Below, in pieces: positions 2,969 to 32,522 of a DNA stretch of 64,000 nt (within the stretch, counting starts at the first letter, position 1; each line of letters begins with the position of its first letter). The position numbers and the translations under genes are program-made. The DNA is from Peptococcaceae bacterium. Lineage in GTDB: Bacteria; Bacillota; Peptococcia; Peptococcales; Peptococcaceae. A model generated the notes under the pieces. The model made no database searches. It was given only the letters and a program-made list of their open reading frames with translations, and had not been told where the DNA came from. The stretch is taken from NCBI GenBank assembly GCA_017547685.1, contig JAFYPD010000028.1:2009-66008 (forward strand), written 5' to 3'.

Positions 2969-3889
2969 ATGTCAGACCATGCAAACAGAACTTACAAAGA
3001 CAGCGTGTTTTCAAAGTATTTTCGGGAAAACAAAGAAGGGCTTGTGGAACTCTTTAACGCCATTGAAGGAACCAGTTATCCGCTCGACACACCAGTAGTA
3101 GTAGAGACGCTGGAGGATGTACTATACAAGGAAAAAATCAACGATTTATCCTTTCGGCTGAATGAGCAGATACTGGTGCTGATAGAACATCAGTCAACAA
3201 TTAATGAAAATATGGCATTGCGTTTACTAATGTACGTGGCAAGGCTGTATGAAAAGCTGCTGAACCAGTGGGAAAAACGAGTTATGTATGAGGAAAGGCG
3301 GATTTTAATTCCGACACCAAAATTTGTGGTACTATATAACAGCAAAGCACCTTATCCGGAACATAGTGAACAATATTTATCCCAGTCATTTCTGGTAAAA
3401 GAGGATTACCCGGCACTAGAGTTGAAGGTAGATGTATATAATATTAATTATGGAGAAAATAACAAACTGCTGCAGAAAAGTAAACATCTGAATGATTACA
3501 GTCTATTTATTCATGCAATAAATCAGGAGTATACAGCCGGTAAACCTCTGACTGATGCAATTAAAGAAGCAATATCTTATTGTATTGAGCACGATATTAT
3601 GGGAAAATTTCTGCAAAAGAACGGAAGCGAGGTGCGAAACATGCTGATTGGTGAATGGAAAACGGAAGAAGCTATGGAATATATCGAGAAAAAAGCAAAA
3701 AAAGAAGGAGAAAAACTCGGTCGTACAGAAGAACGCGAAAAACTGATTCGTGCGTTCAGTGATTTGCTGACACCGGAACAGATTGCAGAAAAACTGCAGC
3801 TACCGGTAGAATCTATACTGGCAATTCTGCAAAATGCCACTGTGGTTGCAGAGCCGGAAGTATCTTACGAAGCAAAGAAAACAGAATAA
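2969..3889 (+). CDS. Rpn-family recombination-promoting nuclease / putative transposase (PD-(D/E)XK, YhgA-like)
   Basis: N-terminus MSDHANRTYKDSVFSKYFRENKEGLVELFNAI... and LVLIEHQSTINENMALRLLMYVARLYEKLL (E-x-Q nuclease core) are typical of the family. AGGAGG at 2956-2961 favours ATG 2969 over the track start 2963. Confidence 0.8.
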   Translation: MSDHANRTYKDSVFSKYFRENKEGLVELFNAIEGTSYPLDTPVVVETLEDVLYKEKINDLSFRLNEQILVLIEHQSTINENMALRLLMYVARLYEKLLNQWEKRVMYEERRILIPTPKFVVLYNSKAPYPEHSEQYLSQSFLVKEDYPALELKVDVYNINYGENNKLLQKSKHLNDYSLFIHAINQEYTAGKPLTDAIKEAISYCIEHDIMGKFLQKNGSEVRNMLIGEWKTEEAMEYIEKKAKKEGEKLGRTEEREKLIRAFSDLLTPEQIAEKLQLPVESILAILQNATVVAEPEVSYEAKKTE

Positions 3890-3895
3890 CGCTAC

Positions 3896-3951
3896 AAAAA
3901 CAACCCTCCTCTGCCCTGTCAGACTGACAACGCAAGGAGGGTTTTGTTTTT
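3896..3951. terminator. Bidirectional intrinsic terminator between the Rpn gene (+) and uxaA (-)
   Basis: aaaaacaaccctcct ... aggagggttttgttttt, a GC-rich stem flanked by an A-run and a T-run, placed between convergent stop codons at 3889 and 3965. Confidence 0.7.
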
Positions 3952-3964
3952 ACATATAGTTTAG

Positions 3965-5143
3965 TTAACAGTAATTGCACAGCCGCGGCATGGCAATCTC
4001 GCCGATGCCGAAAATTTCGTGTTTTACCAGCTCGCCGGAGGCCACGCGCAGAATCATCTGCAGCAGAGCTTCGCCCAGTTCTGCTATGGTCTGTTCCTGC
4101 CTTAGCGACGGGCTTGTGTCAAAGTCGATAAAGTCTTCCATCCAGGATGCGGTATGTTCGTTGCCAGTCAGTTTCAGCACCGGTGCAACGGGGTTGCCGC
4201 TGGGGGTTCCCCTTCCTGTGCTGAAGATGGTCAGCTGGGCACCGCCCGCTGTCATCTCGGCCACGGAACACACATCATAAGCGCAGGTATCCATCACCAC
4301 CGTACCTTTGGTATTCACCCTGTCGCAGGACTGCAGCACAGCCTGAATGGGCCGGGTGCCTGCCTTGTGAATGCAGCCCAGTGATTTCTCTTCCAGCGTG
4401 GTAATGCCGCCTGCCTTGTTGCCCTGCGACGGGTTGCCGCTGCGGATATTCTCACCCAAATCGATAAATTTCTGCTCACAGCGGGCCACAATGTCTAAAA
4501 TCTGCTGGCCGATTTCGTCTGTTGCGGCCTGTTTTGCCAGCACCTTCTCCGCACCCACAAACTCCGGCGTTTCACTGATAATGGATGTTGCGCCCAAATC
4601 TGCCAGGCGGTCGCACACATAGCCAATCACCAGATTGGCTGATAAACCCGATGTGGGGTCAGAGCCGCCGCAGTTGGTGCCCACAATCAAATCGGATATC
4701 GGGCACGGCACCCGGCTGCACTGTGCCGCCTGAGCAATCAATTCGCCGGCCAGCCGCTTCCCTTCGGCCACGGTGCGTTTCACACCGCCGCACTGCTGAA
4801 TCTCCACCGCTTCCACCGGTTTATCGGTCTGCAGCCGAATGGCTTCTTTCACAATCTCCCACTGCAGCTGTTCACAGCCCAGGCCAACCAGCAGCACACC
4901 GTACACATTGGGATTTGCCGCCAGCCCGGCCAGCAGTTTTAAGGTCATTGCTCTATCGCCAGCCACCTGTCCGCAGCCGTTCTGGTTATGGATGCCCACT
5001 GCACCGGGCAGATTGCGGGTAATCATTTCTGCCACATCACTGGAACAGGCGCAGGTTGGAATTACCAGCACATGATTGCGCACGCCCGCGCGGCCATCGG
5101 TCCGCCGATACCCCATAAAAGTAAACGCATCCTGTTTTTCCAT
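3965..5143 (-). CDS. uxaA: UxaA-family (altronate/galactarate-type) dehydratase, large catalytic subunit
   Basis: 392-aa ORF. MGYRRTDGRAGVRNHVLVIPTCACS..., GLGCEQ and GTNCGGSDPTSGLSANL are characteristic of the UxaA C-terminal domain. Confidence 0.85.
   Translation of the reverse strand: MEKQDAFTFMGYRRTDGRAGVRNHVLVIPTCACSSDVAEMITRNLPGAVGIHNQNGCGQVAGDRAMTLKLLAGLAANPNVYGVLLVGLGCEQLQWEIVKEAIRLQTDKPVEAVEIQQCGGVKRTVAEGKRLAGELIAQAAQCSRVPCPISDLIVGTNCGGSDPTSGLSANLVIGYVCDRLADLGATSIISETPEFVGAEKVLAKQAATDEIGQQILDIVARCEQKFIDLGENIRSGNPSQGNKAGGITTLEEKSLGCIHKAGTRPIQAVLQSCDRVNTKGTVVMDTCAYDVCSVAEMTAGGAQLTIFSTGRGTPSGNPVAPVLKLTGNEHTASWMEDFIDFDTSPSLRQEQTIAELGEALLQMILRVASGELVKHEIFGIGEIAMPRLCNYC
3969..4075. repeat. 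Direct-repeat partner (functional copy) of fragment 2728-2830
   Basis: See the hand alignment with 2728-2830; same orientation, 1241 bp apart. Confidence 0.8.
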
Positions 5144-5427
5144 TACGCCTCTCCTCCTTCCGGCGGTTCACTGTCGGCATTGTGGGTATGCACCCACTGC
5201 CCGGCAGCAATATCTGCTGCGGCATAGCCCATAGGCTGCCCGTATTTATAAATTATCTCTCCCCGCTTCATGGCCCGTCTTGCGATTTTGTGATACTGCG
5301 GAATATCCTCCAGCGCTGTGATATCTTCCGTGCCCGTACTTGCCGTTTCACCGGCCTGTACTGCCTCCAGAACGGTCAGCACAGTATCGTTATCTTCTAT
5401 CCGCACAGCTTTCTTTTTTGCCGTCAT
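5143..5427 (-). CDS. SAF-domain protein, split N-terminal subunit of the UxaA-family dehydratase
   Basis: 94 aa. The pattern ...DIPQYHKIARRAMKRGEIIYKYGQPMGYAAADIAAGQWVHTHN is the SAF/UxaA N-terminal pattern. The stop overlaps the uxaA start by 1 nt. Confidence 0.75.
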   Translation of the reverse strand: MTAKKKAVRIEDNDTVLTVLEAVQAGETASTGTEDITALEDIPQYHKIARRAMKRGEIIYKYGQPMGYAAADIAAGQWVHTHNADSEPPEGGEA

Positions 5428-5442
5428 ACATACACCCCTTTA

Positions 5443-5480
5443 CAAAAAACTGCTCCTCTCAATTTTGATAAGAGCAGCAG
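5443..5480 (-). terminator. Weak hairpin plus U-run immediately upstream of the SAF/uxaA RBS (possible attenuator)
   Basis: The minus strand reads ctgctgctcttatcaaaattgagaggagcag followed by ttttttg. The RBS AAGGGG and ATG 5427 follow directly after. Confidence 0.3.
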
Positions 5481-5585
5481 CTTTTCTGTTATTGCCTGTT
5501 ATTAATGCGATGTTGTTATTATCATGTTATTTTTTATAATAGTCTGCCAGCTTGCGGAAGGCTTACAGTAAGAAATACTGTATTT

Positions 5586-6131
5586 TTACGCCAGCGGCAG
5601 GTTTTGTTCCACAGCAGCATCTAAAGCTTTCAGGGTCAGCGTATTGTTTTCCAGCAGCAGATAGCCTCTTGTGCTTTCCTGTTTTGGCAGTGTGACCGAG
5701 CCCGGATTTGCCAGAATATAATCGCCTCTGTCCTCCAGCACCGGGATATGGGTGTGCCCGTGCAGCAGCACGTCCCCCGGCTGCAGCATCGGCAGTGCAG
5801 TTTCATTGTAATGATGCCCGTGGGTGGCAAAAATCATTCGGTTACCGGCCGATAAAATGCAGTAATCGGCCATGATTGGAAACTCCAGCATCATCTGGTC
5901 TACCTCGCCGTCGCAATTGCCTCTCACACATAAAATCTGCCGTTTCCGCGCATTCAGCATAGCCGCCACAGCCTTCGGGTCGTATTCTTCCGGCAGCGGA
6001 TTGCGCGGCCCGTGATACAGAAGATCCCCCAGCAATAACAATTTGTCCGCCTGTTCCGCATCAAAAGCTTCCAGCAGTTTGCGGCAGTACAGCGCCGAGC
6101 CGTGAATGTCCGATGCAATCATTATTTTCAT
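5586..6131 (-). CDS. yfcE: YfcE-type metallophosphoesterase (MJ0936 family phosphodiesterase)
   Basis: Carries MKIMIASDIHGS, LLLLGDLLYHGPRN, GNCD and THGH/HGHTH metal-ligand motifs. Confidence 0.85.
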   Translation of the reverse strand: MKIMIASDIHGSALYCRKLLEAFDAEQADKLLLLGDLLYHGPRNPLPEEYDPKAVAAMLNARKRQILCVRGNCDGEVDQMMLEFPIMADYCILSAGNRMIFATHGHHYNETALPMLQPGDVLLHGHTHIPVLEDRGDYILANPGSVTLPKQESTRGYLLLENNTLTLKALDAAVEQNLPLA

Positions 6132-6146
6132 TGTGCAGCACTCCTT

Positions 6147-6887
6147 TTATAACTCCATCTGTTTGAGAAAATCCCTGCTCTTTAACCTCCAGTTCAGCAC
6201 CTGCTGCAGCTGCAGCTCCATATACTGTTCCAGCGACTGCCGCCCATCCCTGCTGATGTATACCCAGCCCAGTTTATGCATCGGTATATTATCCAGCGCT
6301 TTCAGCACCGTTATCCCTTCCTGCGTCAGCACAGCACCGCTCTGCTGCCCATGGCTGCATAAATGGCAAAGCACACCGCCCTGCACACCGTAATAGCGTT
6401 CTCCGTGCAGCGGGGTACCGCATTGCAGGCAATGATTCAGCTGCAGGCCGTAGCCCTGCAGTTCCAGCAGGCGCACTTCCAGATGGCGCACAGCCAGCCA
6501 CGGATTGATATGTTCCAGCAGATACATGGTCTGCAGAATCAGTAAAAACAGCGCTTCATCCGGCTGGCTCTCGGCAATGACCTGATCCAGCAGTTCAGCC
6601 GCATAACCGGCATAACTCATGCGGGCAAAATCGCTGCGAAGCGACGGAAAGGCCGTCTCTGTGGACGCACCGGTCACCACAGGGAACGCTTTGCCGGCTG
6701 TCAGCACCAGACTGGTGTGACTGAACAGCAGAATTCCGCTGCGCAGTTTGCTGGCCGTTTTTTTCACGCCGCGCGCCTGCACGGTTATTTTGCCCTGCTC
6801 ACGGGTATACACCGTAAGCAGCTGGTCTGCCTCTTTATAATCTCTGCTGCGCAGAATAACACCGTTCACATGCTGATACTGTTCCAC
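6147..6887 (-). CDS. recO: DNA repair protein RecO
   Basis: GVILRSRDYKEADQLLTVYTREQGKITVQARGVKK OB-fold N-terminus, plus a C-terminal CLQCG...CHLC zinc motif. GTG start at 6887. Confidence 0.9.
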   Translation of the reverse strand: MEQYQHVNGVILRSRDYKEADQLLTVYTREQGKITVQARGVKKTASKLRSGILLFSHTSLVLTAGKAFPVVTGASTETAFPSLRSDFARMSYAGYAAELLDQVIAESQPDEALFLLILQTMYLLEHINPWLAVRHLEVRLLELQGYGLQLNHCLQCGTPLHGERYYGVQGGVLCHLCSHGQQSGAVLTQEGITVLKALDNIPMHKLGWVYISRDGRQSLEQYMELQLQQVLNWRLKSRDFLKQMEL

Positions 6888-6987
6888 CTGGTTCCTCTTC
6901 TTCCTGTTCCAGCTGACAGCCTAACAGATAATAGCCAATCTGGCCGTTCTGACGAAATAACTCCCAGCATACCTGCTGCAATTCCAT
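6835..6987 (-). CDS. yqzL: YqzL-like small protein (below the ORF-track size cutoff)
   Basis: Hand-translated ORF (MVG)MELQQVCWELFRQNGQIGYYLLGCQLEQEEEE... The W-x-LF-x-x-(T/N)G-x-I-x-x-YLL pattern and the position directly upstream of recO match Bacillus yqzL. It overlaps the recO 5' end by ~50 nt. The alternative start is ATG 6996. Confidence 0.5.
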   Translation of the reverse strand: MELQQVCWELFRQNGQIGYYLLGCQLEQEEEEPGGTVSACERCYSAQQRL

Positions 6988-7070
6988 ACCGACCATCCTT
7001 TCTGTTCTTTGCTATATCTGTAGTGTCTGTTGCATTTTTTGTTTTATCCAGCCCATTTTTTCCAGAGCAT

Positions 7071-7106
7071 GAAAATTGAAATGATTTCGAACTGGAAATC
7101 ATTTCA
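7071..7106 (-). terminator. Intrinsic terminator after the alarmone-synthetase gene
   Basis: 12-bp perfect stem, tgaaatgatttc (7077-7088) with gaaatcatttca (7095-7106). It lies 13 nt after stop 7119 and is followed by a short T-run on the minus strand. Confidence 0.6.
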
Positions 7107-7118
7107 AACATACTTGCA

Positions 7119-7898
7119 CTATGCTTCTTCGCCTGTTTCCGCCAGGTTCGCATCGGCTGTTTTCGCCATGTTGGCAGCCTGTGCGGCCCGTTCTTCCTCA
7201 CTGAGGTACGGCGTCATTTTATTGCGGATATCCTGCATTTTTTCATCCAGCAGCGCAGCTAAATCGGCACACTGATTCAGGCCAATCAGCACCTGACGCG
7301 GCACCACTTTTCCTTTTTTGTAATACAGCTTGTGTTCCAGGCTGGCCCAGAAATCCATAGCGATGGTGCGAATCTGTACTTCAATGGTCACCAGTTCTGT
7401 TTTGTCTGTCAGAAACACCGGCACCTCCACCAGCAGATGCAGACTGCGGTAGCCGTTGTCTTTCGGATTTTTGATATAATCCTTCACTTCTTTGATGGTT
7501 AAGTCCGCCTGCCCGGCCAGCTTTTCGTAAATTTCATATACATCTTCCACAAAAGAACAAACAACACGGATTCCGCCAATATCATGCAGATTTTCCCGTG
7601 CACTCTGCGCGGATACCGGATATCCCTGCCGAATCAGTTTTTCCACTGTTTTTTTGGGGTTTTTGATCCGGGTTTCAATGTGCTCAATCGGGTTGGATGC
7701 GTGCAGAAAATCATACTCCGCATTGAGAATATTCAGTTTTGTCACAATCTCATCCAGCCCGAATTTATGAATAATAAACAAATACCGCCACTCGTTCAGT
7801 TCTTTACTTTCTTCTACATCAATCAGATCCCGCAGCTGATCCACTTCACTCAGAAAACTTCCATTGCTGTTATCAATTACTACTGACATTTCAGACAC
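7119..7898 (-). CDS. Small alarmone synthetase, RelA/SpoT-domain GTP pyrophosphokinase (RelQ/RelP/YwaC type)
   Basis: ...NPIEHIETRIKNPKKTVEKL..., LHDIGGIRVVCSFVEDVY, YRSLHLLVEVPV and EVQIRTIAMDFWASLEH are the synthetase-domain motifs. There is no hydrolase domain. Confidence 0.85.
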   Translation of the reverse strand: MSEMSVVIDNSNGSFLSEVDQLRDLIDVEESKELNEWRYLFIIHKFGLDEIVTKLNILNAEYDFLHASNPIEHIETRIKNPKKTVEKLIRQGYPVSAQSARENLHDIGGIRVVCSFVEDVYEIYEKLAGQADLTIKEVKDYIKNPKDNGYRSLHLLVEVPVFLTDKTELVTIEVQIRTIAMDFWASLEHKLYYKKGKVVPRQVLIGLNQCADLAALLDEKMQDIRNKMTPYLSEEERAAQAANMAKTADANLAETGEEA

Positions 7899-23483: not shown

Positions 23484-23579
23484 ATTGTATATTCTATCAT
23501 AGATTTCTACAAATGAAAACAACAAATATCCCCCGTTTCAAAGGGATTTTCATTTATTTCTATCACTGTTTTTATTCTG

Positions 23580-26500
23580 TTACAATATCTCCCACGCGGC
23601 TTTGCTGCCTTTTTCGGTTTTGGTGACTACCAGTTTCCGGTCAATCTGATGTTTCAGTTCGGTAACGTGAGAGATAATGCCCACCAGCCGTTTCCCGCCG
23701 GACAGCTCATTTAAAATGGCAATGGCCTGGTTGCGGGTTTCTTCGCTGAGGGAGCCGAACCCTTCATCAATAAACATGGTGTCAATGTGCACGCTGCTGG
23801 CTGTATTCTGAATCATATCGGCCATGCCCAGCGCCAGGGAAAGGGCTGCCATAAAGGATTCGCCGCCGGATAATGTTTTCACATCGCGGCTCTGGTCGTT
23901 CACAATGCTGTACACATCCAGATCAAGCCCTACAAATCCCTGACTGGCTAAATCTTCTGTATCGCGGCACTGCAGAATAAACTGGCCGCCGCTCATCACA
24001 TACAGCCGTTTGTTGGCGTTGTCCACAATCTGCTGAAAATATCTGCGCTGGATATAAGTCTGAAATTTCAGATGTTTTCCGCTTAATTTTCCGTTAGCTG
24101 TGGCATCCAGATTTCTGAGAATGCTGTTTTCCCGCAGCATGGTTTCTCTGCTTCGGTACAGGTTCTGTACCTTATGATGTACATCCCGGTTATTCTCTAT
24201 CTGGCTGAACAGCAGCGTTGCTGTGTCCCGGTTCTGCTTCATCTGCACCTGCAGTTCCTGCAGTTTTGCCTGATAGCTCTGCGTATCCTGTTTTTCTTTC
24301 CCTTTCACTTCGTCTTCCACGGTGCGAATCTGTGCATGGTTTTCCCGTATCTGATTCTGGTACTGTTCCAGCATCGCTTCGGCAGCTTCCAGTTCAGCCA
24401 GTGGCATCCGGCTGTCACGGTAAGCGCCTTCTGTTATAAAGCCCTGCGCCTGCATGGTCTGTACAAACATCTGATACGCGGCATTCTGTTTTTCCGTCAG
24501 GCTAGTCAGCGTGTTCTGCTGCATCTGCTGCGCGCCCCGTTTTTCCTGCAGCTGATGCACAATATTCTGCAGCTTTGTTTCTTCTGTCTCCCAGCCGGTT
24601 TTCAGCTGCTGCAGCTGCTGTTTCAGCTTATCTGCCGCAGTGCGTGCATCCGTCTCTGTGCTGTACTGCAGCTGCCCTTTCAGCGTTTCCACAGTTGTTG
24701 CATAACCTGCCAGTTTCACTTTTTCATCCTGCAGCTTCTGATACAGTGCCTGCTGTTCTGTGGTTTTCTGCCCGATTTCCTGTTCCAGTGCTGTCAGGGT
24801 TTCTGCGAGTTTCTTTAACGCCTGCTGTGTTTTCTCTGCCGCAGTTCTTCTAACCTGCAGCTGTTTTTTCTCTTCGGCAGCGGCAGATTTTTTCGCCTCC
24901 ACATCCTGTATAGAAACTGCGGGTAAGCGGAATGACACATCGTAGTACTTCTGGCCGTTTTTCAGCACTTCTTTTTCCTGTGCTTTATAGTCACTGATTG
25001 CCTGCTGTAAGTTGCTCTTTGCCTTCTGTGCTTCTTCTCTTGCCTGCTCCAGTTTGTTCTGTGCCGCTTTCAGGGTGCTGCTCTCCACCAGCGTGTTTGC
25101 TGTGTGAGATACCGGCTCATGGTGCCGGGAACCGCACACCGGGCAGGGCTGCCCCTCTTCCAGGCTCTGGGCCAGAATGGCCGCCTGACTGTCCAGAAAC
25201 TGCTGATACAGCTGATTATAGGCTTCTTCCTGCCGCTGTTTCATGTTCTCTGCCTCATTGGCGAGAATGCGCAGTTTCTGCCCGCTGATTCTGGCTGCTT
25301 CCAGCTGTTTCATATCCGCTATCAGGTTTTCAAATTCCGATAGCAGTTCACTGCACCGTTTCAGTTCGCCATCCAGCACTTCCACATGCTCCTGCTTCTG
25401 TTCCAGTTCTTCCTTGCGCTGCACAGTTGTCTGTTTCTGCTGCATCTTCCCGGCAAGCAGTGTTTCCCCGTCCTGCCAGGTTTTCTGCAGCGTGTCACAG
25501 ATGTTCTGCATCTGCGCCTGCCGGGTCACTGCTGTTTCATATGCCTGATACTGCGGGTAGGCTGCCTCAATTCGGGCAATTCTGCTGTTAAAGTCCGGCT
25601 GCTGCTGTTCATACTGTGCTTTTTTCTCTGCGGCAGCAGGCTCCTGCGCCTTTCGCGCGTTTTCCAGGGTATCAATGGCAGTCTGCATAGCACGCAGTTC
25701 CGTCTGACAGGTTTCTGTTTCCTGTTTGCGATCCAGATAAGCCGCTTCTTTCTGCTGTACCAGGTCGGCCTTTTTGCCCAGCGCTGCTTTCTGCTGCAGT
25801 CGTTCCATTTCGCCTCGCCTGTCATCCAGATTCTGTTTTATCTGCAGAAAGCCCTGGTATTTTTCCCAGATGGCATTAAAGGTTTCGGCATCATTTAGCG
25901 TTTTCTGCAGCTGGTCACAGGCTTTCTGGTCAATGGTTTCCTGCCGGCTTAATGCCTGCCGGTTTTCTTCTGCCTCTGCAATCAGCTGAGAGATATACGC
26001 TGTCACCTCATCAGCCTTTGCCGATGCGCGGAAACAGGTGTGTGTTTCAAACTGTTCAGCATACGCACTGTTTTCCATCAGCCGCAGCCGCTGCAGTTCC
26101 ATCTGAATGGCTTCTTCATTGCGTTTCAGCGCAATGCTGCTTTCTTTGGCACGCTCCTGCAGTTCCTGCTCCATATACCGATACACGCGCGTATCAAAAA
26201 TTTTCGCAAAAATCTCCATGCGCTCTTTGGACGTTGCCTGCAGCAGCTTCATAAACTCACCCTGTGCCAGCATGGCGATCTGGGTAAACTGGGAGGCATC
26301 CAGCCCGATAATCTCCCGGATTTTTTTATCGGTCTCTGTTTTTTTGCCGGGATAGCTGGTGCCATCAGGCAGAATCAGTTCCACATCGGGCCCCAGCGGT
26401 GTTTTGTTTTTCTCATATACGGTATTTCCGTCTGCATCTGTTTTTGCTTTATATTTCTCCTGCTTCGGCCGCCGAATCACAGTGTAAATCTGGTCATAGT

Positions 26501-26747
26501 ACAGAAACTGAAATTCCACTTCTGTAATCAGGTCCTGCCGCGCATACTGGCTGCGCATCATCTCGCCGCTGCGTTTTCCGCCGCTGGTTTCATCAAACAG
26601 GGCAAAGGTAATGGCATCAAAGATGGTGGTTTTGCCGGCACCGGTATCACCGGTAATCAGAAACAGGCCGTTCTGCACCTGGGTGAAATCAATACGGGCC
26701 TGCTGGTAAGAACCAAATGCCTGCATGTTCAGATAAATCGGTTTCAC
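23580..26747 (-). CDS. sbcC: Exonuclease SbcC (Rad50-like ATPase)
   Basis: 1055 aa. FLITGDTGAGKTTIFDAI (Walker A), a long coiled coil with the CPVCGSRHH zinc hook, LSGGESFMAALSLAL (signature) and MFIDEGFGSL (Walker B). GTG start directly after the sbcD stop. Confidence 0.9.
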   Translation of the reverse strand: MKPIYLNMQAFGSYQQARIDFTQVQNGLFLITGDTGAGKTTIFDAITFALFDETSGGKRSGEMMRSQYARQDLITEVEFQFLYYDQIYTVIRRPKQEKYKAKTDADGNTVYEKNKTPLGPDVELILPDGTSYPGKKTETDKKIREIIGLDASQFTQIAMLAQGEFMKLLQATSKERMEIFAKIFDTRVYRYMEQELQERAKESSIALKRNEEAIQMELQRLRLMENSAYAEQFETHTCFRASAKADEVTAYISQLIAEAEENRQALSRQETIDQKACDQLQKTLNDAETFNAIWEKYQGFLQIKQNLDDRRGEMERLQQKAALGKKADLVQQKEAAYLDRKQETETCQTELRAMQTAIDTLENARKAQEPAAAEKKAQYEQQQPDFNSRIARIEAAYPQYQAYETAVTRQAQMQNICDTLQKTWQDGETLLAGKMQQKQTTVQRKEELEQKQEHVEVLDGELKRCSELLSEFENLIADMKQLEAARISGQKLRILANEAENMKQRQEEAYNQLYQQFLDSQAAILAQSLEEGQPCPVCGSRHHEPVSHTANTLVESSTLKAAQNKLEQAREEAQKAKSNLQQAISDYKAQEKEVLKNGQKYYDVSFRLPAVSIQDVEAKKSAAAEEKKQLQVRRTAAEKTQQALKKLAETLTALEQEIGQKTTEQQALYQKLQDEKVKLAGYATTVETLKGQLQYSTETDARTAADKLKQQLQQLKTGWETEETKLQNIVHQLQEKRGAQQMQQNTLTSLTEKQNAAYQMFVQTMQAQGFITEGAYRDSRMPLAELEAAEAMLEQYQNQIRENHAQIRTVEDEVKGKEKQDTQSYQAKLQELQVQMKQNRDTATLLFSQIENNRDVHHKVQNLYRSRETMLRENSILRNLDATANGKLSGKHLKFQTYIQRRYFQQIVDNANKRLYVMSGGQFILQCRDTEDLASQGFVGLDLDVYSIVNDQSRDVKTLSGGESFMAALSLALGMADMIQNTASSVHIDTMFIDEGFGSLSEETRNQAIAILNELSGGKRLVGIISHVTELKHQIDRKLVVTKTEKGSKAAWEIL

Positions 26748-27905
26748 CTACACCATCTCCTTTGCTGTTTCAATCACATCGGCAATCACGCGGGCCTCTT
26801 CCTCGCTCATGGGCTGGCCGTTCATCTCCTGATAAAACGCCTGAAAGGCCTCAAACGGTGTCAGATGCTCCTCACTGGACATGGTATGTGCCAGCTTATG
26901 CCGGATGCGCGTGTTATCCAGCCGCACTTCCAGAATTCTGCGATACCGCTCCTCCAGCTGGTCTTTCGGGCGATACAGCCCGTCTTCATCCTTCAGCGTA
27001 ATGCTGACATAATCCTCCAGCGGCGCATGATCCAGATGCAGCAGCTCTTCCAGCGTGCCCTCCAGCTTTCTGACATCATGCAGCGGCGTCAGCGGAAGCT
27101 GCTCTATCTGTAACGGCACACCTTTTTCCTGCAGGGTAACCATAGTGATGCCTTTCTGATGCCGCGCCTCACTCACCGAATATTTCAGCGGTGTACCGCT
27201 GTAGCGAATATGCTCTGCGCCCATCTTCTGTGCACCGTGAATATGCCCCAGCGCCACATAATCAAAGTTCTGCACATGGCAGATATCCACGCTGTCAATA
27301 CCGCCCACCGCAATATAATTCTGTTCCGAGTCACACCGTTCCGGCTCTGCTGTACCAGCCACAAAAAACTGATGGGCAACCAGCACATTGCGCTTTGTAT
27401 CATCAATGGTTTCCCGGTTCAGTACCGCCGCTACGGCTGTATCGTAACTGGTAACCACGCCTTCCTCAAATAACTGCCGCACATCACGGGGACGAATAAA
27501 CGGCAGCAGATAAAAATTCACATCTCCGTACGCATCCTGTACTGTGATTTTTTTCAGATATTCCTCCTGCCCCGGCGCTTTCGCAGAAATATAAATCCGG
27601 CTTTTCTCCAGAAATGCACTGGCATAGCTCAGCCGGGAGGCATTGTCATGATTGCCGGCAATCAGCAGTACCGGCATCGGTTTTGGCAGTCTGGTCAGCC
27701 GGTTCAGAAACTGGTTAAAAATTTCATAGGCCTCGGCCGACGGCGCCGATTTATCATAAATATCACCGGCAATCACCATAACATCCGGTTCATGCGCTTC
27801 CGCTGCCAGAATGATTTTTTCTAACATATCTTCCTGCTCTTCTCTCAGATTATAGTAGTGCAGCTGTTTTCCTATGTGCAAATCTGATATATGAAAAATC
27901 TTCAT
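26748..27905 (-). CDS. sbcD: Exonuclease SbcD (Mre11-like nuclease)
   Basis: MKIFHISDLHIG, IAGDIYD, IAGNHD, VAHQF and LGHIH phosphoesterase motifs. Confidence 0.9.
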   Translation of the reverse strand: MKIFHISDLHIGKQLHYYNLREEQEDMLEKIILAAEAHEPDVMVIAGDIYDKSAPSAEAYEIFNQFLNRLTRLPKPMPVLLIAGNHDNASRLSYASAFLEKSRIYISAKAPGQEEYLKKITVQDAYGDVNFYLLPFIRPRDVRQLFEEGVVTSYDTAVAAVLNRETIDDTKRNVLVAHQFFVAGTAEPERCDSEQNYIAVGGIDSVDICHVQNFDYVALGHIHGAQKMGAEHIRYSGTPLKYSVSEARHQKGITMVTLQEKGVPLQIEQLPLTPLHDVRKLEGTLEELLHLDHAPLEDYVSITLKDEDGLYRPKDQLEERYRRILEVRLDNTRIRHKLAHTMSSEEHLTPFEAFQAFYQEMNGQPMSEEEARVIADVIETAKEMV

Positions 27906-27915
27906 AGCAACCTCC

Positions 27916-30900
27916 CTAGAGTAAATAAATCAGCATACCGGGCAGCGCAAACACAGCCCCCATCCAGCCTCTGTTCTCAATATGCACCAGATAATGGCCG
28001 GCAAAGCCGCGCACCACCCGTTCCAGATGAGCACTGTCCATGGCAATCAGCTGCACCTCGGTCAGACGGGATAAGTCCATCGCCTGCAGCAGTCTGGTGC
28101 CATAGGTTTCCGCTGTTGCAAACACAGCCTGCATCACCGGCTGCATCAGTACATTGCGGCTCTCTTGCGGCAGTAACCGCGGCCACTGTTCCGCCAGCTG
28201 CAGAATCAGCAGTTCGGCTTCATACTGCATCCATTGTTCTGCGTTGTCGTCCAGTAAAATCTCATGTACCGCCTGTTCCAGGGCTTCTGCCGTATCCGGC
28301 CAGCACAGCCACTGCTGCGGCCGTGTAATCGCTATATTTTCCAGCAGCCGCAGCTGGAAGCCGCGCAGCAAATCAGATAGCTGGTCATACGGAACCATCT
28401 GCTGCAGCGGAATGGTTTCCATACAGCCTCGCGTTAACTGACGCAGTGTAATGATACCAATCGTTTCGTCATAAATATTCTGCACCAGCGGCTGCCAGCT
28501 CTGAACAGCAGCTTCCGCATTGCGCTGCCACTGAAACCCCAGTTGAATCTGGACACGTTCCAGCAGCCCGTCTATCTGAATCAGACGGCCCCATGCTGCA
28601 ATCGGCTGGCGGCTGATCTGTTCTGCAGCCTGTCCTGCAATGCGGCCCGCACACTGATGCACCACCGGCTGTTCCAGCAAGGTTTCCAGCACATGTGCCA
28701 TCTGCTTCTGGTCGACCGGTACCTGTAAAACTGCTGGAAACAGATGTTCCTCCCAGCATACCTGAAACAGGCCCTGCAGCTCTCTGCTTTTTACCGACAG
28801 GAAAATCGGCAGTTTCTGATGCAGTACCCGCTCTGCCACCTGTGCCACAATGATATCCCCATCCATCATCGCATATCCCATCCGCTGCATGAGCCCCATA
28901 CGGTTTAAGATGGCGGTCTGCACCGCAGCCGTGATGTGCTCCTGTTTGTTCTGCAGTATCTGCAGCAATGCCTGCTCCGCCATGCGGAATAAGCTGGACA
29001 GGTTCTGTTCCACCCAGTTTCCGCTGCTGTGTTCCAGCCATTGTTTGATCCGTTCCGCCGACAGGAATCGGCCTGCCAGTTTCGCCACATGATTGCTGTG
29101 CTCTTTCTGGCTCATCCACCCCTCTAACTGATTTTGTATATTCCTCCGCAGATGCTGTGTTTCTGCATGCAGTAGCTGCTGCACTGTTTTATCACTGTGC
29201 AAAAGCGCATGGCCTGCTGCCTTTAAATCCGGCACCGACTGGGCAGTTATAAACCGCCGTGCCATATGCCAGAACTGTTCTGCCGATACGATGCTGTTTA
29301 AGTACACATCACGGTGTATCTGCCGGTTCAGCCACTGTTCCAGCATCGGCAATATCTGCTGTTCAGGCTGCAATCCATCGGACTGACTGCTGCGCAGAAA
29401 AGCAAAGGGCATACCGCCAAACCGCTCTAGCATCATGTGCGTGCTCTGTTCTCCGTTCTGTTTCAGCCACTGCAGCAGCGGCTGTACAATGGTCTGTCGG
29501 CGGATTGCCAGCTCTGCGGATACCATCTGCATCACCTGTTCATCGGCTGCCAGTGCATTGCCGAGCGATTGCAGTTCCGGCGCTAACTTCTGCAGCATTT
29601 CGCTTAATATGGTCTCATTGATGACATAGCGGTCCACCAGATGACCCATACTGCGGGCGAACCGCGCCTTCTGTTTTGGAATCACACCCTGCATCATCTC
29701 AATGCCGCCCACCGGCTCATACGGCCAGAATAATCCTTTTACAGCTACACAGTTCGTGCTGTAGCCGACCGCACCAAACACAGCCGACTTCCCGGCCAGC
29801 ACACTGGCAATCACCGCAGGGCTTGCAGCAGCCGTCACAGGAAGTGCCGCCGATAATGCAGTGCCAACAGTAGCGCCAGCCACAGCCCCCATACCGGCAC
29901 CCAGATAATTTAACGGCTGAAATTCCTGACCCATCAAATCTTCTACCAGCTTTAACATCTCTTCATTGCTCAGCCGCTGAATCTGTTCTTCTGCCAGTCT
30001 GCTCAGCTGTCCCTGCATCTTGTCCAGACCGGTCTGCGACAGCAATTGCACCAGCTGCGGCTGCTGTGTTTTTATCCAGCCCTGAGCAAAGGCCAGCAAA
30101 TCGCTCAGTGTATTGTCTGCCGCCATACTGCCAAGCCACTGCTGCCCGCGCTGCATCAGCATCTGTTCCAGCGCTGTGTACAGCGGCCGGTAAACAGCAT
30201 CGGACGAAGCCTGCGGCAGTTTGTCAGCCAGATAGCTGCAGCCCTGCCGCACCGCCTGTTCCACTACAGTATGCAGCCTGGTTTCATCCAGCTGCAGAAA
30301 CTGCGATACAGTCGTTTGTTGCAAGCTATCCCTCTGTTTGAAAAGGAACGCGGATAAATCCAGTTTATCCATGCTGCGCACCACAATATCAGCCAGCAGC
30401 AGTTCTATCTGCTGCTGATGCTCCGCCAGCTTCAGCGAACCCGGCTTCCAGTCCAGCAGGGCTGCCGCCCACGCTTCGCCAGACTTCTCCACCATCCGCT
30501 GCAGATTATCTGTCAGTAATGTCTGCACGACTTTTTGCAGCGCCTGTTTTTCATTTAACTTCTGAACCAGTTCCCCCAGCTTCTGCTCCGTGAGCTGTTC
30601 CCGGATACGCTGCATCAGCAGCACAACTGCTTCATGGCTGGTCTGCTCATTCAGCACACTCTGCTGCAGCAAATCCACCAGACTGCTCTGTTCCAGCACC
30701 TGGGCCAGAACCGTTTCTTTCAGTTGTTCCAGCAGCATGCCTTTCATGCCGCCAATTTCGCCTGCAATCTCGTCGATGGCATCTTCCAGCATGGCATTGA
30801 CCGAGGTTTCATTCCGCTGCAGCCAGTCCATCACCCGTTCCATCACCAGCGGAATCTGCTGCTGCAAAAGTGGGGTCAGCTCTTCCAGTAAACCTTCCGG

Positions 30901-31776
30901 CACAATCTCCGCCGCCGGTACATCAATGGTTTCCAAAGCAAGAATGGTCTGTTCTGCCACATAGGCCAGAAAAGCCTGCCCTTCCTCCGATGCCAGCAGG
31001 TTTTGTACCAGCAGTGCCAGTTCTTTTTCATCACAGGCCAGATACTGGCGCAATGTGTACTGTTCCATTGCACCGTCCAGTTCCAGTAATACCGGACGCA
31101 GTTCTATCTTCTGAATACTGTGCTGCAGCAGCTGATGCAGCACCTCTCCATACTGCAGGCAAATCTGCTGCGGCCACTGCCGGCTCAGCACAGCCGCATT
31201 GTTCAGCACAGTATCACAGAAAGCGCCCAGTCCCAGCTGCTCCAGCGACTGCTGACCGCGCGCTTTCTGCCATCCATTCCAGAATCGTACGGCAAAAGCC
31301 TCCTGCTGTAAGGTATCCAGCAGAATGGTTTCCAGCTGACCGCTGATCTGCTGACACTGCTGTTCTGTTAACAGGCGTTCCACCGGCAGATATTTTTTCA
31401 GCAGCAGTAAAATCTGCTCTTTTTCCTGATGCAGAAACTGCACCAGCAAGTCCTTCAGGAAAGCGGTGATTTCTGCATAATCCGGGAGATCATCCAGTTT
31501 CTGATGTTCCAGCGCCTGCGGCAGCTGTTGCTGCAAAAAATCGTCCAGCGCCTCCGCCAGTGTCTGCTGTACCTCCGGCAGCGCCAGCTGTTTTTCCAGC
31601 ACAGCTCTGGTCAATACCTGATCCTCCAGCAGCAAACCGGCTTCCTTTGCAAAATCATCCCGTGTCTGTTCAATCACGCCGCCCGGCTTAAACAGGCTGC
31701 GAATCGCTGTATCGTTGGTCATATAGCCAGTCAATGCACCGAACAGTGTTTCCGTCAGCAGTTGCATCAGCATCAC
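27916..31776 (-). CDS. 1286-aa membrane protein made of two tandem DUF445-like modules; function unknown
   Basis: The N-terminus LFGALTGYMTNDTAIRSLFKP and the internal FGAVGYSTNCVAVKGLFWPYEP (~nt 29712-29777) both match the DUF445 G-Y-x-T-N-x-x-A-(I/V)-x-x-LF-x-P start. Each module ends in a hydrophobic Gly-rich segment (NYLGAGMGAVAGATVG; NRGWMGAVFALPGMLIYLL). The sequence is very Gln/Leu-rich. Its stop is 10 nt from the sbcD ATG, and the GGAGG lies between them. Confidence 0.6.
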   Translation of the reverse strand: MMLMQLLTETLFGALTGYMTNDTAIRSLFKPGGVIEQTRDDFAKEAGLLLEDQVLTRAVLEKQLALPEVQQTLAEALDDFLQQQLPQALEHQKLDDLPDYAEITAFLKDLLVQFLHQEKEQILLLLKKYLPVERLLTEQQCQQISGQLETILLDTLQQEAFAVRFWNGWQKARGQQSLEQLGLGAFCDTVLNNAAVLSRQWPQQICLQYGEVLHQLLQHSIQKIELRPVLLELDGAMEQYTLRQYLACDEKELALLVQNLLASEEGQAFLAYVAEQTILALETIDVPAAEIVPEGLLEELTPLLQQQIPLVMERVMDWLQRNETSVNAMLEDAIDEIAGEIGGMKGMLLEQLKETVLAQVLEQSSLVDLLQQSVLNEQTSHEAVVLLMQRIREQLTEQKLGELVQKLNEKQALQKVVQTLLTDNLQRMVEKSGEAWAAALLDWKPGSLKLAEHQQQIELLLADIVVRSMDKLDLSAFLFKQRDSLQQTTVSQFLQLDETRLHTVVEQAVRQGCSYLADKLPQASSDAVYRPLYTALEQMLMQRGQQWLGSMAADNTLSDLLAFAQGWIKTQQPQLVQLLSQTGLDKMQGQLSRLAEEQIQRLSNEEMLKLVEDLMGQEFQPLNYLGAGMGAVAGATVGTALSAALPVTAAASPAVIASVLAGKSAVFGAVGYSTNCVAVKGLFWPYEPVGGIEMMQGVIPKQKARFARSMGHLVDRYVINETILSEMLQKLAPELQSLGNALAADEQVMQMVSAELAIRRQTIVQPLLQWLKQNGEQSTHMMLERFGGMPFAFLRSSQSDGLQPEQQILPMLEQWLNRQIHRDVYLNSIVSAEQFWHMARRFITAQSVPDLKAAGHALLHSDKTVQQLLHAETQHLRRNIQNQLEGWMSQKEHSNHVAKLAGRFLSAERIKQWLEHSSGNWVEQNLSSLFRMAEQALLQILQNKQEHITAAVQTAILNRMGLMQRMGYAMMDGDIIVAQVAERVLHQKLPIFLSVKSRELQGLFQVCWEEHLFPAVLQVPVDQKQMAHVLETLLEQPVVHQCAGRIAGQAAEQISRQPIAAWGRLIQIDGLLERVQIQLGFQWQRNAEAAVQSWQPLVQNIYDETIGIITLRQLTRGCMETIPLQQMVPYDQLSDLLRGFQLRLLENIAITRPQQWLCWPDTAEALEQAVHEILLDDNAEQWMQYEAELLILQLAEQWPRLLPQESRNVLMQPVMQAVFATAETYGTRLLQAMDLSRLTEVQLIAMDSAHLERVVRGFAGHYLVHIENRGWMGAVFALPGMLIYLL

Positions 31777-31835
31777 GCATCATCTCCATTCATCCTCTAT
31801 GTAAACAAATCATTTGCAAAATGCGGTAATATTTT

Positions 31836-31864
31836 ATTATAACATAGAAAACAGGGAATTACAA
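31836..31864 (-). promoter_or_regulatory. Sigma-A-type promoter for the DUF445-sbcD-sbcC operon
   Basis: The minus strand reads TTGTAA-N17-TATAAT with a TGt extended -10, about 60 nt upstream of start 31776. Confidence 0.6.
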
Positions 31865-31916
31865 AAAATCAGACAGCGCATCAGGGTTAACATGCCCCGC
31901 AAAATCGAAAATACAT

Positions 31917-31956
31917 AAAAAAGGATGAGACTCCCGGCAAAACCGAGTGTCTCATC
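31917..31956 (-). terminator. Intrinsic terminator after yafQ
   Basis: gatgagac (31924-31931) pairs with gtctcatc (31949-31956). On the minus strand it is followed by tttttt. It begins right after stop 31957. Confidence 0.7.
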
Positions 31957-32244
31957 TTACCTTCCGAACAGATCGCTGTGCGTTCCCGTTCTGGATAATG
32001 TTAATACGAGCAAATCGTTCTCAATCCGATAAATCAATAACCAATCTGGCTGAATGTGGCACTCACGGTGTCCGACCCAGTTCCCGGTCAATGCATGGTC
32101 TTTGTTTTGCTCTGAAAGCTGTTCGCCGCTTGCCAGTTTGCGAATGATGTCATCAAGGAGATCAATGTCCAGATGGCGCTTCATTGCCAATTTATAATCT
32201 TTCTTGAACTGATTTGTCCAAACGATGTCTAAATGTTTGTTCAT
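31957..32244 (-). CDS. yafQ: Type II toxin, YafQ family (RelE/ParE superfamily mRNA interferase)
   Basis: WTNQFKKDYKLAMKR...LSEQNKDHALTGNWVGHRECHIQPDWLLIYRIENDLLVLTLSRTGTHSDLF is the YafQ signature. 4-nt overlap with the antitoxin gene. Confidence 0.85.
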   Translation of the reverse strand: MNKHLDIVWTNQFKKDYKLAMKRHLDIDLLDDIIRKLASGEQLSEQNKDHALTGNWVGHRECHIQPDWLLIYRIENDLLVLTLSRTGTHSDLFGR

Positions 32245-32522
32245 TCTTTCAACGCCCTCAGCGCTTCATCTACATCAGAGTAACGTTTTACAGACGGATC
32301 ACGGGCAATGCGTTCTGCTTCCAACATTGCTGCAATCGTCTCCTTATTCGGCTGCTCTATGCGAACATCAAAAGGAAAACCGCCGACACGAAGAGACTGG
32401 CGGAGAAACACATTGATAGCGGTGGTAAGGTTAATGCCTAATTCACCATACATCGCTTCGCACTGTTTCTTAATATCGCTGTCCATACGGACGCTGAAAT
32501 TAGTAGTAGCCATGTTTGTCAA
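32241..32522 (-). CDS. dinJ: Type II antitoxin, RelB/DinJ family
   Basis: TNFSVRMDSDIKKQCEAMYGELGINLTTAINVFLRQSLRVGGFPFDV is the DinJ ribbon-helix-helix N-terminus. Confidence 0.85.
   Translation of the reverse strand: MTNMATTNFSVRMDSDIKKQCEAMYGELGINLTTAINVFLRQSLRVGGFPFDVRIEQPNKETIAAMLEAERIARDPSVKRYSDVDEALRALKE

Follow-up and report, generated by a model that had tools for sequence, protein, structure and literature searches.

A fused double-DUF445 gene at the head of a probable sbcD-sbcC operon in a Peptococcaceae bacterium, and the in-place replacement of its nuclease genes

Proteins of the DUF445/UPF0754 group (Pfam PF04286), whose members include YheB of Bacillus subtilis and YjiN of Escherichia coli, are widespread in bacteria (E. 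coli, B. subtilis, cyanobacteria and actinobacteria among them) and are commonly annotated as membrane proteins. No functional study of DUF445, UPF0754, YheB or YjiN was found in the literature searched, and the structure libraries searched held no solved DUF445 structure. Operons of the sbcDC type with other leading genes are familiar, as in addB-addA-sbcD-sbcC of B. subtilis and herA-mre11-rad50-nurA of archaea. We know of no third subunit of bacterial SbcCD, and a literature search for accessory or membrane partners of SbcCD found nothing relevant. The locus considered here lies in a 64,000-nucleotide stretch of the genome of a Peptococcaceae bacterium (GenBank assembly GCA_017547685.1, contig JAFYPD010000028.1, positions 2,009 to 66,008; hereafter ‘the window’), where a gene for a giant protein with two DUF445 modules directly precedes sbcD and sbcC. 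A preliminary description had drawn attention to this arrangement and had proposed that the DUF445 protein tethers SbcCD to the membrane or regulates it, or that the three genes form a three-component system.

The reading that we favor, with a probability of roughly 0.55, is that a fused pair of DUF445 units, probably membrane-associated, heads a vertically inherited, mixed housekeeping operon, in which sbcDC remains adjacent by virtue of promoter dependence and translational coupling. A single conserved promoter with an extended -10 element would drive both the DUF445 gene and the only sbcD-sbcC pair detected in the genome. The link between the DUF445 protein and SbcCD would then be regulatory (sbcDC, having no promoter of its own, would rely on the DUF445 promoter and on translational coupling), and this dependence would suffice to hold the genes together with no need of a dedicated partnership, physical or functional; a specific interaction between the DUF445 protein and SbcCD is, we infer, absent. 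The protein itself would probably be the covalently joined counterpart of the neighboring DUF445 genes found in pairs in other Bacillota, acting as a pseudo-heterodimer of two units, since such gene pairs are frequent there.

In the window, the DUF445, sbcD and sbcC genes, the toxin-antitoxin pair and the promoter and terminator signals described below lie on the minus strand. The large open reading frame (ORF) at 27916..31776 encodes 1286 amino acids when counted from a GTG, and ends in a TAG stop at 27916-27918. The ATG at 31773, one codon further on, is the more probable start (27916..31773, 1285 amino acids), because an identical database cluster (P0004) has 1285 residues and because the homologues all begin with MLxQL; a GGAG sits 7 nt ahead of the GTG and 10 nt ahead of the ATG. 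The protein is rich in leucine (15.9 %) and glutamine (11.8 %), matches no NCBIfam model, and has full-length relatives in 33 further database clusters, at 40-66 % identity and all of 1280-1300 amino acids. Its DUF445 N-terminal motif occurs twice, as GYMTNDTAIRSLFKP at residues 17-31 and as GYSTNCVAVKGLFWPYEP at residues 671-688, just as the preliminary description had stated, and homology to the family is confirmed by profile: the entire protein scores 84.1 bits against Pfam DUF445, and the N-terminal and C-terminal halves, scanned singly, score 60.1 and 38.0 bits, both above the gathering score of 33.8 bits.

Module 1 (29812..31773, residues 2-655) consists of GYMTNDTAIRSLFKP, about 600 helical residues and the C-terminal motif PLNYLGAGMGAVAGATVG, and module 2 (27919..29811, residues 656-1286) of GYSTNCVAVKGLFWPYEP, a helical body and the hydrophobic C-terminal tail RGWMGAVFALPGMLIYLL (27919-27972), which is hydrophobic in nearly all homologues. 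A Gly/Ala-rich, ‘glycine-zipper’ hydrophobic linker (29767..29901, residues 626-670) lies between the modules. Each module carries the motif G-x-x-T-N-x-x-A-[IV]-x-x-L-F-x-P at its N-terminal end and a Gly-rich hydrophobic motif at its C-terminal end (residues 621-638 and 1270-1286), and the motif residues are invariant across 16 homologues. When the two halves were compared directly by BLASTP, the match was confined to the N-terminal 80 amino acids (34 %, E 7e-7). Alignment of one module profile against the other with HHalign, using 17 homologues for each, gave a probability of 99.7 % and an E-value of 1.1e-25 over 568 columns (1-643 against 3-634), with high-confidence anchors at the N motif, at one central motif and at the C motif. 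This end-to-end match indicates that the halves are homologous along their full length, and therefore that a module of about 640 residues has truly been duplicated within the protein, as first proposed from the repeated signature.

Each module is an expanded DUF445 domain (the Pfam profile has 368 positions), and within module 1 the profile is broken by about 200 residues. The commonest DUF445 form in the class and phylum is an ORF of only about 200 amino acids that matches profile positions ~2-120 and 305-367 (‘mini-DUF445’), which suggests that the N and C motifs constitute the core of the domain, with the helical region between them as a variable insertion. Adjacent pairs of DUF445 genes of about 420 amino acids each were found in at least nine other genomes (G078, G124, G200, G143, G100, G181, G217, G091 and G050), and DUF445 units seem to operate two at a time, whether encoded by neighboring genes or fused into one chain. 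The giant architecture occurs in three families of one order, and a few other long DUF445 frames occur elsewhere in the phylum, such as that of G153 (1258 amino acids), whose neighboring ORFs look unrelated to DNA repair on inspection of their N-terminal sequences, with no Pfam scan; the long frames fetched for G097 and G152 turned out to be just DUF445 genes of about 200 amino acids. A second DUF445-like frame (383 amino acids, 26.3 bits, and thus sub-threshold) was seen on a short contig of genome G000 (G000:C33:113-1084; locus L019).

Downstream of the DUF445 gene, in the order DUF445, sbcD, sbcC, stand the two nuclease genes. The first, sbcD (26748..27905), encodes a Mre11-type nuclease of 385 amino acids, a Lachnospiraceae-type xenologue, which scores 151 bits against TIGR00619 (cut-off 77.65), carries Metallophos and SbcD_C domains as well, and displays the motifs DLHIG, GDIYD, GNHD and GHIH. 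The second, sbcC (23580..26747), encodes a Rad50-type ATPase of 1055 amino acids with a CPVC zinc hook and intact Walker motifs (GDTGAGKTT and DEGFG were seen beside CPVC); it exceeds the cut-offs of AAA_23 (93 bits) and SbcC_Walker_B (42 bits), falls under those of TIGR00618 (252.9 bits, cut-off 478.5) and sbcc_Staph (356.8, cut-off 920), and aligns to TIGR00618 over its full length (1-1049 of 1043 positions).

The geometry of these genes proved to be as first described. A spacer of 10 nt (GGAGGTTGCT, 27906..27915) separates the DUF445 gene from sbcD in the junction TAG-GGAGGTTGCT-ATG, with a ribosome-binding site (RBS), AGGGAGG, that overlaps the TAG stop; the last base of the sbcD stop is 26748 and the first of sbcC is 26747, with no gap at all. 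A sigma-70-type promoter (31836..31864) stands upstream of the DUF445 gene, consisting of TTGTAA as the -35 element, a 17-nt spacer and TGtTATAAT as an extended -10 element (10 of 12 positions matched, TG present). When the sequences preceding the DUF445 gene were aligned for seven loci of the same genus, which have differing upstream genes, TTTxG at -35 and TGxTATAATA at the extended -10 proved invariant in all seven against a mean column identity of 44 %; this phylogenetic footprint shows the promoter to be genuine and to travel with the operon. A scan returned no promoter candidate within the 3' portion of the DUF445 gene or just upstream of sbcD, and no convincing terminator between the operon genes, where the hits within coding regions were short and no better than background; this agrees with the earlier claim that the only strong promoter precedes the DUF445 gene. 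From this layout, we infer that DUF445, sbcD and sbcC are co-transcribed.

At its upstream border the operon appears to be shielded from incoming transcription by the intrinsic terminator of a yafQ-like toxin gene (31915..31953, GATGAGACACTCGG...CCGGGAGTCTCATC plus a T-run), which was read by eye and is not listed by a simple scan; at the other end, a weak terminator-like hairpin (23528..23547) lies 33 nt past the sbcC stop. The toxin gene belongs to a RelB/YafQ toxin-antitoxin pair (Pfam; 31957-32522) with its own terminator, situated between metK and the operon promoter; because the closest relative (L005) has metK 186 nt upstream of its DUF445 gene without such a pair in between, the pair is a recent insertion. 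No LexA/Cheo box was found at the DUF445 promoter. One LexA/Cheo-like site with a single mismatch (GAACAGTGTTTC, 31741-31752) falls 22-33 nt inside the DUF445 coding sequence, over conserved TETLF codons, and is probably without meaning, because the window contains fewer such sites than chance would supply (12 observed, 17.9 expected).

The reach of this gene order was followed through about 500 genome scans, covering some 220 distinct genomes. Among species-representative genomes (gut ‘Peptococcaceae’ assembled from metagenomes), sbcD-sbcC comes immediately after the DUF445 gene at 11 of 15 loci; of the four exceptions, two run into a contig edge and two show different genes downstream, so that 11 of the 13 informative loci are linked. 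Metagenome contigs gave a similar picture, with linkage in 13 of 14 informative loci, the exception (L052) being a stand-alone DUF445 gene amid genes for UPF0182, RqcH, RelA/SpoT and RecO. Within the GTDB family to which these genomes belong (f1; 38 genomes in 8 genera), DUF445 and sbcD, judged by the coordinates of their matches, are adjacent in about 24 genomes and 6 of the 8 genera, and the synteny is therefore not peculiar to one strain. Of the remaining genera, one (g6) has the DUF445 gene and sbcD on different contigs, and in the sole genome of the other (g7), which is incomplete, no sbcD was found. When flanking ORFs were clustered, DUF445-sbcD-sbcC was the sole block common to all loci of the family, with the flanks shuffled around it.

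Outside family f1 the linkage disappears. The sister families f3 and f4 possess the giant DUF445 gene, never beside sbcD, which lies on other contigs; its neighbors there are MFS, PdaC/DUF3298 and other unrelated genes. No adjacency of DUF445 and sbcD was found in other families of the class, and in a sample of 151 genomes from across the phylum no DUF445 match adjoined sbcD outside f1 (about 147 other genomes). Given these absences, from the sister families to the wider phylum sample, the linkage has a single origin. One candidate, a DUF445 pair near sbcD in G143, was rejected as coincidence: 14 kb and unrelated ORFs separate the pair from sbcD, and G100 and G181 of the same family do not share the arrangement.

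Three further observations concern individual loci. In one genome of f3 (L022 6075-10201; G070) the giant gene is split into ORFs of 492 and 850 amino acids in overlapping frames, with the break inside module 1, explicable as a frameshift, as a pseudogene or as an error of assembly. In a single species pair (L002 and L006, 6212-7318) a recA gene (470 bits) is found some 680 nt upstream of DUF445-sbcDC, probably by coincidence, since this is not conserved elsewhere. In L007, an ORF of 1469 amino acids without a Pfam match (3267-7676) stands directly upstream of the DUF445 operon.

Comparison within the genus of the window reveals an exchange of the nuclease genes behind a resident DUF445 gene. 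The DUF445 protein of the window is 50-66 % identical to those of all members of the genus, including those congeners that have the other type of SbcD (50-55 %), and a FastTree phylogeny of DUF445 follows the structure of the genus, with no lengthened branch in the lineage that underwent the exchange. SbcD behaves otherwise: identity is 68-93 % among the window, L001, L003 and L005, and only 34-37 % to the congeners L002, L006, L007 and L008, whose SbcD proteins are nearer to those of distant genera (44-52 %). SbcC divides in the same manner, with a window type of 1055 amino acids and another type of about 897 amino acids that share 26-31 % identity; between the new and the ancestral type overall, SbcD is about 35 % and SbcC about 27 % identical. 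The new-type sub-lineage comprises the window, L001, L003, L005, L028 and L050, and the old type is found in L002, L006, L007 and L008. The window SbcD is 50-57 % identical to Lachnospiraceae proteins, including that of Roseburia hominis, and in a maximum-likelihood tree it falls inside a Lachnospiraceae clade (support 99/100), while the remaining linked SbcD proteins form a clade of their own family (98/100). None of the Lachnospiraceae sbcDC loci examined has a DUF445 gene upstream. These comparisons show that sbcDC was replaced in place by a pair of Lachnospiraceae type while the DUF445 gene continued to be inherited vertically, and that the DUF445 protein tolerated SbcD and SbcC proteins only 35 % and 27 % identical to the former ones.

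The replacement occurred at the very same site, because both the junction and a downstream gene are common to the two types: the downstream gene is shared by L005 (new type) and L007 (old type), and a TAG stop overlapping AGGAGG, 9-10 nt from the ATG, is alike in L007 and in four loci of the new type (the window, L005, L050 and L028). The retained junction in turn puts the point of recombination no earlier than the sbcD start codon, presumably within the stretch that encodes the conserved FH-x-x-DLHIGK. The retained adjacency is accordingly a by-product of the exchange and not independent evidence of functional coupling.

Other genera differ in what the operon carries. In g8 and g5, sbcC shares 4 nt with the PseudoU_synth_2 gene that comes next, after which stand a gene for CCA-adding enzyme and a second pseudouridine-synthase (rlu) gene (L025 14842-17966, with equivalents in L011, L014, L015 and L026); with these genes on board, the operon is functionally mixed. 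In g6, a pseudouridine-synthase gene (L021 9037-9873) follows the DUF445 gene directly, at a distance of 9 nt, and its product is 35 % identical (E 5e-38) to the first synthase of g8/g5 and 24 % to the second, while the SbcD of g6 is encoded elsewhere in the genome and falls in yet another foreign-looking clade. Because g6 nests inside the family in the DUF445 tree, its state is a derived one: the operon lost sbcDC from its interior and retained the DUF445 gene, and sbcDC is thus dispensable to it.

AlphaFold2 (AF2) models computed from a 31-sequence alignment are all-helical, both for residues 2-700 (mean predicted local confidence (pLDDT) 75.6, predicted TM-score (pTM) 0.36) and for residues 620-1286 (77.5 and 0.35); the low pTM values would be as expected of elongated multi-bundle chains. 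A profile built from the family alignment matched none of the PDB sequences at E <= 1, and in a Foldseek search of both half-models against the PDB the best match had an E-value of 0.02 with TM below 0.1. Foldseek matches to the coiled coils of chemoreceptors, SMC proteins and Rad50 were set aside as generic long-helix noise, and are not evidence of kinship with Rad50.

Membrane association, which the preliminary description had ascribed to the protein, is a less certain matter. On the Kyte-Doolittle scale, windows at or above the applied cut-off of 1.4 occur only in the Gly/Ala linker (maximum 1.77, segment 639-663), and on the Wimley-White octanol scale the linker (626-670) is not favorable, leaving only the last 16-19 residues (…GWMGAVFALPGMLIYLL), which are favorable in nearly all homologues. 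The protein would nevertheless probably be held at the cytoplasmic membrane by this hydrophobic tail together with the glycine-zipper linker, whose GxxxGxxxG pattern is invariant, as are G626, G628, G630, G634 and G638. Were it instead a soluble cytoplasmic helical scaffold with no membrane role, the Gly-rich segments would be flexible linkers; that alternative, which we regard as quite improbable, is consistent with the confinement of octanol-favorable residues to the tail, with a central segment rich in Ala and Gly and not in Leu, Ile or Phe, and with low pLDDT in both linker and tail (below 50 in the linker). It explains less readily why the glycine pattern and the tail are (nearly) invariant in homologues, and it sits uneasily with the general annotation of DUF445 proteins as membrane proteins (one JGI source calls a relative ‘uncharacterized membrane protein YheB’). 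The hydrophobicity behind the earlier label of ‘membrane protein’ is weak.

A true three-component system, in which a membrane-anchored scaffold would bind SbcCD and localize or restrain it, by analogy with Nbs1 in the MRN complex, is in our judgment unlikely; that the double-DUF445 protein is a third SbcCD partner of a particular kind (a helical scaffold, associated with the membrane, that would use conserved SbcCD surfaces to position or gate the nuclease and hence would be tolerant of the exchange) is rather unlikely, although if true it would be the first functional assignment for the DUF445/UPF0754 superfamily. Several observations do speak for such a partnership, and to that extent weigh against the regulatory reading that we prefer. 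The triad persists as a unit in 6 genera, down to about 20 % DUF445 identity and with complete turnover of the flanks, and survival of this sort is a classical signature of functionally coupled genes; the genes are very tightly packed, with 9-27 nt between them in most loci, or a 4-nt overlap; the linkage was kept through the replacement of sbcDC; the window sbcDC is the only copy detected in a genome that is 93 % complete; and an interaction by way of conserved SbcCD surfaces would outlast a xenologous exchange. Against a partnership stand the single origin of the linkage and its absence outside the family, the persistence of the DUF445 gene beside unrelated genes in g6, L052, f3 and f4, the exchange of SbcD and SbcC for such distant proteins with no longer DUF445 branch, the position of the exchange junction within conserved coding ends, the RNA-modification genes in the g8/g5 operon, and the slender case for membrane anchoring itself. 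Readings of the locus as a defence system are likewise unlikely, and an anti-phage or anti-plasmid module, composed of an SbcCD-like nuclease and a membrane effector or sensor, strikes us as far-fetched: the SbcC protein is weakly similar to the SMC-like defence ATPases LmuB, DndD and PbeC, and a toxin-antitoxin pair lies next door, but the LmuB matches amount to generic SMC-head similarity, the DUF445 protein matches none of the PADLOC models, the SbcCD is the only copy found and is of housekeeping type (full length, with zinc hook), and the locus is vertically inherited in a core-gene neighborhood (metK, coaBC) and not on an island. What the preliminary description observed stands, with synteny across genera, confirmed homology and an operon layout in which no promoter candidate just ahead of sbcD and no convincing terminator between the genes was found, while its step from co-expression to tethering or regulation of SbcCD, or to a three-component system, is not borne out: the single origin, the xenologue exchange, the deletion in g6 and the mixed operon all speak against it.

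Among described systems, the closest to the leading protein are the DUF445/UPF0754 proteins themselves, with which it shares the HMM match, the GY-TN...LF-P motif and the Gly-rich C-terminal motif; it differs from them in having two modules of about 640 amino acids in one chain, helical insertions of about 200 amino acids and, in one family, an sbcDC operon. Conserved linkage to SbcCD in an operon would have given this group its first functional clue; the clue is weakened because the linkage has a single origin, can be lost, withstood replacement of SbcCD by a distant xenologue and sits in an operon that in other genera includes RNA-modification genes. What remains is a clearly defined double-module DUF445 subfamily, for whose fold the PDB offers no counterpart. 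Pairs of neighboring DUF445 genes in other Bacillota likewise encode two units in tandem on the same strand, which fits a working unit of two modules; theirs are separate genes, none of them beside sbcD, whereas the units of the window are fused and each is expanded.

The operons addB-addA-sbcD-sbcC and herA-mre11-rad50-nurA likewise have promoter-distal sbcD-sbcC genes that depend on the promoter of an upstream gene, with sbcD and sbcC tightly coupled. Their partners, however, are DNA-end-processing enzymes with a demonstrated common pathway, whereas the leader here is an uncharacterized helical protein and the operon runs on, in two genera, into genes for pseudouridine synthases and CCA-adding enzyme. 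The nearest relatives of the nuclease pair are the SbcCD proteins of Lachnospiraceae such as R. hominis, in whose clade the window SbcD is nested; in contrast to their loci, which have no DUF445 gene upstream, the pair in the window sits behind a resident DUF445 gene and uses its RBS junction. As an instance of xenologous replacement in place, the locus is a clean one: a housekeeping repair nuclease gave way to its counterpart from another bacterial class, while the resident RBS junction stayed as it was.

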